Assembly: GCF_002854065.1 (NCBI RefSeq)
Contig: NZ_CP024147.1
Source: Escherichia coli
Lineage (GTDB): Bacteria > Pseudomonadota > Gammaproteobacteria > Enterobacterales > Enterobacteriaceae
Direction: 5' to 3' (one strand)
Length of the DNA: 64,000 bases
Shown here: piece after piece, positions 42,001 through 45,000 of the stretch
How the letters are laid out: each line of letters starts with the position of its first letter
How positions within the stretch are numbered: the first letter of the stretch is position 1
Made by a program: the position numbers

Positions 42001-45000
42001 TATAAGTGCGCTCGATGCCGCGATGCAGATATAGCCGTCCGCGTAAATTAGCTGATGCTGTCCAGGTACCATCTTTGTGTTTGACCAGCATTCCTGGCAT
42101 GACCGCACCGCGATTAACGGTCTGCGTTCCGTAATGTTGATGAACCATAAAAACTCCTGCCCGTAAGCTGGGCTGCTGAACATATAAAGACTTCTGGGTA
42201 ATGACTCCAACTTATTGATAGTGTTTTATGTTCAGATAATGCCCGATGACTTTGTCATGCAGCTCCACCGATTTTGAGAACGACAGCGACTTCCGTCCCA
42301 GCCGTGCCAGGTGCTGCCTCAGATTCAGGTTATGCCGCTCAATTCGCTGCGTATATCGCTTGCTGATTACGTGCAGCTTTCCCTTCAGGCGGGATTCATA
42401 CAGCGGCCAGCCATCCGTCATCCATATCACCACGTCAAAGGGTGACAGCAGGCTCATAAGACGCCCCAGCGTCGCCATAGTGCGTTCACCGAATACGTGC
42501 GCAACAACCGTCTTCCGGAGCCTGTCATACGCGTAAAACAGCCAGCGCTGGCGCGATTTAGCCCCGACGTATCCCCACTGTTCGTCCATTTCCGCGCAGA
42601 CGATGACGTCACTGCCCGGCTGTATGCGCGAGGTTACCGACTGCGGCCTGAGTTTTTTAAATGGCGGAAAATCGTGTTGAGGCCAACGCCCATAATGCGG
42701 GCGGTTGCCCGGCATCCAACGCCATTCATGGCCATATCAATGATTTTCTGGTGCGTACCGGGTTGAGAAGCGGTGTAAGTGAACTGCAGTTGCCATGTTT
42801 TACGGCAGTGAGAGCAGAGATAGCGCTGATGTCCGGCAGTGCTTTTGCCGTTACGCACCACCCCGTCAGTAGCTGAACAGGAGGGACAGCTGATAGAAAC
42901 AGAAGCCACTGGAGCACCTCAAAAACACCATCATACACTAAATCAGTAAGTTGGCAGCATCACCTCTGGGTTGAGCGTATTTTAATCAGTAGTATCTTTT
43001 ACAAAATAAAGAGTATTCAATAATGAAAATTTTAATGATGATCGTGGCAGTTTCAGTATTGGCTGGCTGCACAAGTGACACCCGCTCGATGTGGCATAGC
43101 CGTTATGCATTCAAGACTGTCGGTCAGGTCTCTGCAATGTGTGATGATGGCGATCGTGACGCTTGCTATGCAGCTCGCGATATGGGGGCAATGCAGGTTG
43201 GCCTTAATCAAGCAAATCAGACCATTCAACAGCAGCAAGCTCAGCAGGCAGCTATCGATGCGGCTAACAGACCGATTACAACTAATTGTAATCCCACGAT
43301 AAATGGCGGAATGAGTTGTACCACCTACTAAACTGGTGCGAGAGTTAGTAGCGCCATGAACATTGTTAAGTCGAATGTCTTTATGAAACATTCTAGTACT
43401 TTAAAGCTGCCCCACTTACTCGCCTGACAAACGCACAGCAGGTGGTTTATTGGGTTTGAAAATATCTAAAAATAAGAGGGGGTGAAGTAATGGATGATTT
43501 TGAATCTTACGTGAAGTATTGGGAAGGAAAAAAAATTGAAGATCATGAGCGTCAACTAGATGATCTTGTACGGAGAGAGACTGAGATTTCGCAAGGAGAA
43601 AGCGGGCATGGAAGATTAAGTTTTATCGCACAGCAAATCAATTTTCACCGTAACAAACTGGAAAATTTACGCTTCAGTGGTGATTTGTACTAATTTGATT
43701 TTCCATAATCAACTCGCCATAATCATGTCATCGGAGCCTGAACAACTCCGGTGACTTCTGCGCTAAACGGGGACGTTTATGCGCACATACAATCTAAATT
43801 CTCTTCTCCCTTCACAGATGCAGAAATGCACCTGCGATTTTTTGCATCCAGCGTTTGACCTCTGCGGAGGTGAAGCGTGAACCTCCCACAAGACGGCATC
43901 AAATTACATCGCGGTAACTTCACCGCTATCGGTCAGCAGATCCAGCCTTATCTGGAGGACGGCAAATGCTTTCGCATGGTGCTTAAACCGTGGCGCGAAA
44001 GACGCAGTCTTTCCCAGAATGCACTCAGCCACATGTGGTACAGCGAAATCAGTGAGTACCTCATCAGCAGGGGGGAATCGTTCGCTACTGCAGCATGGGT
44101 AAAAGATGCTCTCAAACACACATACCTCGGTTATGAAACCAAGGACCTGGTTGATGTCGTAACCGGCGAAGTCACTACGATCCAGTCGTTACGCCATACC
44201 TCCGATCTTGATACCGGAGAGATGTATGTCTTCCTGTGTAAGGTTGAAGCCTGGGCGATGAATATTGGCTGCCGCCTGACTATTCCGCAGAGCTGCGAGT
44301 TCCAGCTGCTGCGCGACAAGCAGGAGGCGTAATGACTACACCGCTTATTCGGGTCATGAACGGACACATCTACAGAGTACCAAATCGTCGTAAGCGTAAG
44401 CCTGAGCTGAAGCCATCCGAAATACCAACACTGCTAGGGTATACCGCCAGCCTGGTTGATAAAAAATGGTTGCGACTGGCAGCAAGGAGGAATCATGGCT
44501 GATTTGAGAAAAGCAGCGCGTGGTCGGGAATGCCAGGTAAGAATCCCTGGCGTATGTAATGGCAATTCTGAGACGTCTGTACTGGCACATATCCGGCTGG
44601 CTGGATTGTGCGGTACCGGTATCAAACCGCCAGACCTGATTGCCACCATTGCATGTTCTGCCTGTCACGACGAAATCGACCGCCGCACACATTTTGTCGA
44701 TGCTGAGTATGCAAAAGAATGCGCGCTGGAAGATATGGCGAGAACACAGGTTATCTGGCTGAAAGAGGGGGTTATTAAGGCGTGAATACCTACAGCATCA
44801 CATTACCCTGGCCTCCGAGCAATAATCGCTATTACCGCCATAATCGCGGGCGCACGCACATCAGCGCAGAGGGGCAGGCATACCGCGATAACGTCGCCCG
44901 AATCATTAAAAACGCAATGCTGGATATCGGCCTGGCTATTCCTGTGAAAATCCGCATTGAGTGTCACATGCCGGATCGCCGTCGCCGTGACCTGGATAAT

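Follow-up and report, generated by a model that had tools for sequence, protein, structure and literature searches.

The 64-kb stretch of Escherichia coli DNA analyzed here as a whole (hereafter, the window) carries a lambdoid prophage remnant (36972..49623) integrated at thrW, the tRNA-Thr gene (36913-36988); proBA and then thrW lie upstream of it. The left part of the remnant contains, in this order, int, a xis-like gene, a Dam-like methyltransferase gene, exo, bet, gam and kil, followed by IS1 copy B, the second of four IS1 copies (A to D) in the window. To the right of IS1 B, ORF102, ORF67, ybcN, ninE, ybcO, rusA, ylcG, Q, a lipocalin gene and a YbgA gene are found; after the latter come IS1 C, an HTH gene and IS1 D, and then ykgL, ykgO and ykgM. 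The kil gene (41942..42148, minus strand, 68 aa) is the last gene of the early-left operon kept beside IS1 B. Its product matches the Pfam family KilR, and annotations of relatives call it a phage-encoded cell division inhibitor. On the other side of IS1 B, a 662-bp segment (42965..43626, plus strand) contains ORF102, encoding a putative lipoprotein of 102 aa (43023-43331), and most of ORF67 (43490-43693, 67 aa). This segment is kept in the window and is missing from E. coli CUWW06 and NCTC UGBN01.

The order int, exo, bet, gam, kil, ybcN, ninE, ybcO, rusA and Q corresponds to that of lambda. Two blocks of the lambda order are missing, namely the immunity and replication block at the position of IS1 B and the lysis and morphogenesis block at the position of IS1 D. 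Since both blocks were lost, the element is a remnant and not a functional prophage.

IS1 B (42197..42964, minus strand) is a complete 768-bp IS1. IS1 elements encode insA (zinc ribbon and helix-turn-helix) followed by insB' (DDE domain), which are fused via a -1 frameshift at an A6C motif, and simple insertion of an IS1 generates an 8-9 bp direct duplication of the target. Copy B shows this layout, with insA and insB' both on the minus strand and a single AAAAAAC motif at position 307 of the element. The insA product (91 aa) contains the Pfam domains Zn_ribbon_InsA (E 3e-21) and HTH_Tnp_IS1 (E 1.7e-30), and the insB' product (167 aa) contains DDE_Tnp_IS1 (E 2.3e-78). The length of about 768 bp and the imperfect terminal inverted repeats of about 23 bp that characterize the family (GGTGATGCTGCCAACTTACTGAT / GGTAATGACTCCAACTTATTGAT) were likewise found, with 18 of 23 positions matching between the two ends of B. 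On the plus strand, the element starts with GGTAATGACTCC and finishes with GGCAGCATCACC; IRR adjoins the kil side and IRL the nin side. The identical IS1 copy of CUWW06 is labeled by PGAP as an IS1B family transposase.

The only family property not observed for B is the 8-9 bp target duplication. Its left flank (42188..42196, plus strand), which represents the final 9 bp of the prophage left arm, reads AGACTTCTG, and its right flank (42965..42973, plus strand), the first 9 bp of the nin-side arm that was kept, reads TCTGGGTTG. The missing duplication is not evidence against IS1 membership, but shows that B is not in the state of a simple insertion. Both breakpoints are intergenic: the left one precedes the kil start codon by 48 bp, and the right one lies 58 bp ahead of ORF102 and, as judged from intact relatives, 47 bp past the ren stop codon.

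One boundary rule was used for all four IS1 copies. Copy A (25934..27962, plus strand) is a simple insertion with the 9-bp duplication GACCCTGAA on both sides, and is itself interrupted by an IS3 (26569-27826; 1,258 bp) with the 3-bp duplication TAA. Copy C (47789..48556, minus strand) is also a simple insertion, flanked on both sides by the 9-bp duplication CAGATTGGT; at the corresponding empty site of strain SCU-102, the two flanks overlap by the expected 9 bp. Copies A and C serve as internal controls for the boundary call. An earlier reading of the window from its sequence alone had assigned perfect 9-bp duplications to the first and third IS1 copies and mismatched flanks to the second, and the same boundaries and flank sequences were recovered here.

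Since copies B, C and D are 100% identical across 768 bp, the boundary call of B is not in doubt. Independent support for the boundaries comes from the homology to the closest intact relative, the prophage of E. coli 100416 (L003), which ends exactly at 42196 and restarts exactly at 42965, with no ambiguous base at either junction. A duplication that might emerge under another boundary call, and would contradict the sequence-only reading, was sought. The sole repeat obtainable by shifting the boundary is the 7-mer TCTGGGT (42193-42199 and 42965-42971). It was rejected as a target duplication, as the last three bases of its left occurrence are the invariant GGT terminus of IS1 and as the intact relative reads TCTG followed directly by CGCG at this place.

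Comparison of the flanks with intact lambdoid prophages, which the sequence-only reading had proposed, revealed what abutted each side of IS1 B beforehand: the kil-side spacer on the left and ren on the right. The left arm (36970-42196) equals the 100416 prophage at 5,227 of 5,227 bases and ends at its position 8396, while the right arm (42965-46514) equals it at 3,548 of 3,550 bases and begins at its position 14001. In this prophage, the two flanks have the same orientation and are 5,604 bp apart (8397-14000); the window has the 768-bp IS1 instead. The identity of the right arm to intact prophages is 99.94-99.97%. SNPs give no order of the states: the left arm shows 100% identity between intact and deleted genomes, and one SNP, at 43799, is private to the window. 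The same prophage is present in intact form at the same proA/thrW site in the draft genomes GCA_043621265.1 and GCA_012304005.1, again with a left arm of 100% identity; thus, the pre-deletion state is seen directly at the locus. A 30-mer spanning the intact site (CATCATAATTCCATATCTGGGTTGAGCGTA) occurs in 18 fetched loci, and all ten ORF102 contexts retrieved have O-P-ren immediately upstream of the right flank. The right-flank match in strain JNE23-001, which starts internally, is unrelated and reflects a simple IS3 insertion in ORF102.

IS1 B thus marks a deletion of 5,604 bp, the breakpoints of which coincide with the termini of the element. The absence of a target duplication at B is due to this deletion, a reading supported by the alignments to prophages in which the immunity and replication region is still in place. 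The near-identity of both arms to such prophages indicates that the deletion is very recent.

The genes of the deleted block were named from annotation and Pfam. Next to kil lies a 436-bp spacer. A 310-aa gene and a DUF6932 gene occupy the rexAB position, and after them come genes for a cI-type repressor (HTH_3 and Peptidase_S24) and a Cro/YdaS-type regulator, a gene with a YdaT domain at the place of cII, and the genes O (Phage_rep_O), P (Phage_lambda_P) and ren. The promoter pL and its operators probably lay within the kil-proximal spacer. No N-like ORF of at least 40 aa was found in this spacer in the 100416 prophage, and Rfam gave no match for put/nut-type RNAs in the deleted block. The sequence-only reading had described the loss as the N-to-P region. 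While the immunity and replication block is indeed missing, no N gene was detected in the deleted block of the 100416 prophage; therefore, "N-to-P" is approximate, and the loss is better described as extending from the kil-proximal spacer through ren.

A second, larger deletion from the same junction was found in close relatives. Compared with E. coli CUWW06, the window chromosome shows 100.0% identity in the 24.8 kb searched upstream (10600-35400) and 8 differences in 20.4 kb downstream. The IS1 of CUWW06 shows 0/768 differences from copy B, and the left junction between kil and IS1 is likewise identical. The IRL terminus in CUWW06 is joined to window position 43627 (CGCACAGCA), i.e., 662 bp further right, so that the deletion comprises 6,266 bp, versus 5,604 bp in the window. 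NCTC UGBN01 is in the same state as CUWW06. The 30-mer of the left junction is also present in both of these strains and in four draft assemblies (L023-L026), the contigs of which end inside IS1 at the same left junction. Thus, the lineage has one fixed junction between kil and IS1 and at least two right endpoints (42965 and 43627), each located exactly at an IS1 terminus. The nested variant is evidence of at least one shift of the right end, and gives no order of the two sites for the 5,604-bp event. GCA_965256365.1, GCA_025830375.1, GCA_023095745.1 and GCA_036953705.1 also belong to this lineage.

Junction queries were used to search for related states. Among 5,426 complete E. coli genomes, the left junction was matched by CUWW06 alone, and the window's own right junction (GTTGGCAGCATCACCTCTGGGTTGAGCGTA) was found in none. 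A simple IS1 insertion would give the junction GTTGGCAGCATCACCAGACTTCTGCGCGTA at the kil-side site and TCCATATCTGGGTTGGGTAATGACTCCAAC at the ren-side site. Neither the 5,426 complete genomes nor the 34 fetched loci contained a precursor with a simple insertion and a target duplication at either site. When JGI metagenomes were scanned for exact occurrences of the left junction and of the precursor junction at the left site, 0 matches were obtained. A scan of IMG/VR for the shared left junction alone also yielded 0 matches, so no IS1 is found at this junction there. Likewise, an intermediate with two IS1 copies was not encountered in the complete genomes, the JGI metagenomes, IMG/VR or the 34 fetched loci.

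The most probable origin of this arrangement, with a probability of about 0.62, is IS1-mediated adjacent deletion, of which IS1 B would be the scar. In the proposed course of events, the first step would be the insertion of an IS1 into the target AGACTTCTG, 48 bp upstream of kil, with insAB reading in the same direction as kil. By intramolecular, replicative transposition, the IRL end of this element would then have attacked TCTGGGTTG, 5.6 kb further right, and the DNA in between would have left as a circle and been lost. The IS1 itself would have remained, with its left flank unchanged and its right flank replaced, and this combination would leave no matching duplication. In the sister lineage represented by CUWW06 and NCTC UGBN01, the same IS1 end would have acted across a further 662 bp. 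In this account, it would be the transposase and not homologous recombination that made the deletion, and the left site would be the original insertion site, used before the right one in the 5,604-bp event. Two features expected of adjacent deletions were found, namely nested deletions from one fixed IS junction and an endpoint exactly at the terminus of a full-length retained IS. A precursor in which the IS1 is present together with the neighboring DNA did not occur in the collections searched, and this absence is weak evidence.

The final sequence is the same as that which RecA-mediated recombination between two direct IS1 copies would leave. Independent insertions in direct orientation may have placed one IS1 upstream of kil and another downstream of ren, before homologous recombination deleted the 5.6 kb between them. 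One IS1 would have been lost, and the hybrid survivor would have kept the left half-site of one copy and the right half-site of the other. Such recombination is possible, yet less probable. The genome is rich in IS1: four copies lie within the 64 kb of the window, and each query gave at least 40 matching pieces in CUWW06. The identical copies B, C and D would be ideal substrates; since the IS1 copies here are identical, a chimeric IS1 could not reveal recombination. Both routes, the end products of which are indistinguishable in sequence, are listed as frequent causes of missing duplications (PMC11708052). However, the state of the window would require two insertions and one recombination, the state of CUWW06 and NCTC UGBN01 an extra IS1 insertion at 43627 and another recombination, and all insertions would have to share the same orientation; moreover, no two-copy intermediate was seen in the collections searched. 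The nested, one-ended series favors adjacent deletion over recombination between two copies, short of proof. The sequence-only reading had left the choice between these two routes open; the IS1-bounded deletion that it postulated was observed, and the nested sister variant tilts the balance towards adjacent deletion.

It is very unlikely that a new IS1 arrived together with the deletion in one step, in which case a duplication would never have been made. The precursor searches came back empty, as such an event would predict, and one-step events were proposed for some IS5 and IS481 rearrangements (PMC11708052). On the other hand, all 14 IS-associated deletions of the E. coli long-term evolution experiment (LTEE) were multistep adjacent deletions (PMC11708052), the 662-bp extension in the sister strains is that of a resident IS1 deleting further, and no case of such a mechanism is known for IS1. 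The chance that B is a simple insertion after all, with its duplication hidden by a boundary error or by later mutation, or with its flanks swapped by an inversion between B and D, is practically negligible. The recurrence of TCTGGGT might suggest a hidden duplication, but three bases of the left 7-mer are the GGT end of IS1, and intact relatives have 5,604 bp between the two flanks.

As to inversion, copy D (49624..50391, plus strand) also lacks a target duplication (AGGTGAGGC / TGGGTGTTC). Its left flank ends 2 bp before the point at which the holin gene essD begins in SCU-102, and its right flank begins in the ecpR-ykgL intergenic spacer of ordinary E. coli chromosomes. D thus marks a second, independent deletion, which reaches from the lysis region of the prophage into the spacer between ecpR and ykgL, and this accounts for its unmatched flanks. 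The lysis and structural genes, attR and the chromosome up to and including ecpR were removed. In strain 2022N21-074, yagU, ykgJ and ecpEDCBAR lie immediately before the junction, and none of these 9 kb is present in the window. Between B and D, the genes are ordered and oriented as in intact relatives, and the flanks of B show no match to those of D, either directly or as the reverse complement. Thus, an inversion between B and D, conservative or replicative, was rejected. The same test between the second and fourth copies had already failed in the sequence-only reading; it fails because the fourth copy, D, marks a separate deletion.

As the remnant has no repressor, replication origin, O/P, lysis or morphogenesis genes, it presumably can be neither induced nor propagated. 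If located where expected, pL and pR would also be gone. The genes kil, gam, bet and exo are intact, yet would have lost their promoter region. Since insAB of IS1 B is co-directional with kil-gam-bet-exo, weak read-through from IS1 into these genes is conceivable. A promoter and terminator scan around IS1 B gave nothing over the shuffle expectation except one site inside IRL. A more far-reaching view, in which B is a still-active deletion generator and its read-through replaces pL for the Red-like operon, so that the region would be undergoing domestication rather than decay, is unlikely. If it were true, IS1 B would be eroding the prophage rightward in steps of first 5,604 and then 6,266 bp within one E. 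coli lineage, and IS1 read-through would drive the retained Red-like recombination operon weakly and independently of a repressor.

The relevance of these results lies mainly in the annotation and reading of the region: the thrW prophage is to be regarded as a locked remnant. Two IS1-bounded deletions locked it, the second of which also took the chromosomal ecp (common pilus) operon. The genomes with the block present, with the 5.6-kb deletion and with the 6.3-kb deletion form a small natural series that illustrates IS1-driven prophage decay in IS-rich E. coli lineages. The phenomenon as such is already known; this is an ordinary, well-resolved case of IS1-driven prophage decay, with no new mechanism or family.

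In experimental evolution, an IS without duplication beside a deletion was found to arise by insertion, adjacent deletion and then extension of the deletion (PMC11708052), and stepwise extension of adjacent deletions was documented for IS150 in the LTEE (PMC11708052). The transposition of IS1 within the chromosome is replicative (PMC12428005). This replicative intrachromosomal behavior fits the adjacent deletion proposed here. A fixed junction combined with variable ends is what IS-mediated adjacent deletion with stepwise extension classically leaves behind.

Classical IS1 adjacent deletions are reportedly those of the gal region described by Reif and Saedler in 1975, and replicative deletions and intramolecular rearrangements by IS1 were reportedly treated by Turlan and Chandler in 1995, a study cited as reference 39 in PMC12428005. 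As in the classical IS1 adjacent deletions, the IS is kept at the thrW prophage, the deletion starts exactly at the IS terminus, one flank is unchanged, a target duplication is absent, and a nested series shares a fixed end. In contrast to them, the case described here is natural and retrospective, with a presumed role of the transposase. The succession of insertion, duplication-less adjacent deletion and enlargement (here 5,604 versus 6,266 bp) resembles that of IS150 in the LTEE. However, IS150 belongs to the IS3 family whereas the element here is an IS1, and contemporary strains were compared instead of a time series. DLP12 is a cryptic lambdoid prophage of E. coli K-12 integrated at argU. 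The nin/Q genes of the remnant are of the DLP12 type (ybcN, ninE, ybcO, rusA, ylcG and the Q family) and, as in DLP12 and related defective prophages, immunity, replication and late functions were lost, with IS elements at the breakpoints. Unlike DLP12, the remnant is located at thrW, its exo-bet-gam-kil module is complete, and its deletion is very recent.

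Between the window and CUWW06, a sister strain with the larger deletion, the prophage left arm differed at nine positions, all of which fell into two clusters (38636-39135 and 40717-40934). At each of the nine sites, the window was identical to E. coli 100416, the nearest relative with the deleted block intact. Since the differences were clustered and the window agreed with 100416 throughout, this alignment suggests short gene-conversion patches in the left arm of CUWW06, the source of which was perhaps another lambdoid prophage. In addition, CUWW06 carries a P4-like element of about 10.3 kb, with integrase, primase and SSB genes, between thrW and the lambdoid remnant (L001, the CUWW06 locus, 1665-12000). 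This element is bordered by a 23-bp att-like repeat and was absent from the window, as compared at 36972-36994. The prophage integrase gene is intact in the window (37003-38163), whereas it is interrupted by IS2 in CUWW06. A 1,334-bp element elsewhere in the window (3209-4542) shared 99.9% identity with this IS2.

One SNP was private to the window: position 43799 is T, while C was present in all eight compared relatives covering the site, which comprised block-intact prophages as well as carriers of the larger deletion. The SNP lies within a 33-aa ORF upstream of ybcN.

As with IS1 B, no target duplication was observed for IS1 D (49624-50391), one side of which borders the prophage just ahead of the holin position and the other the spacer between ecpR and ykgL. 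The window contains neither the prophage late genes nor attR, and it also lacks ecpRABCDE, the operon for the E. coli common pilus. In strain 2022N21-074, this operon is accompanied by ykgJ and yagU, both of which are missing from the window. The putative deletion targets of IS1 B (TCTGGGTTG) and IS1 D (TGGGTGTTC) have TGGGT in common, a motif resembling the IS1 end GGT(G/A); its occurrence in both may reflect either IS1 target preference or chance. At IS1 B, the 7-mer TCTGGGT is present at 42193-42199, spanning the boundary between the left flank and the element, with a second occurrence in the first bases of the right flank (42965-42971).

IS1 A (25934-27962), with the 9-bp duplication GACCCTGAA, is split by a nested IS3 of 1,258 bp (26569-27826) that is flanked by the 3-bp duplication TAA. 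An identical IS3 is located in inverted orientation at 9315-10572, with CAAT at either side. It is enclosed by a 300-nt direct repeat (6671-6970 and 10975-11274; 97% identity), the copies of which are 4.3 kb apart.

The block deleted from the window includes a two-gene cassette (8832-10234 of L003, the 100416 locus), which is encoded on the same strand as the repressor and sits between cI and kil in the rexAB position. In intact relatives, it encodes a 310-aa protein without a Pfam match and a DUF6932 protein, and may represent a phage-exclusion or defence moron. HipA-like genes fill this slot in two other relatives' loci (L011 and L014). The window retains cargo genes between Q and the lysis-gene position (45900-49436), encoding a lipocalin, a YbgA/DUF1722 protein with a 2-thiouracil desulfurase domain and a 246-aa HTH protein. 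In other lambdoid phages, the slot between Q and the lysis genes is occupied by toxin or moron genes.
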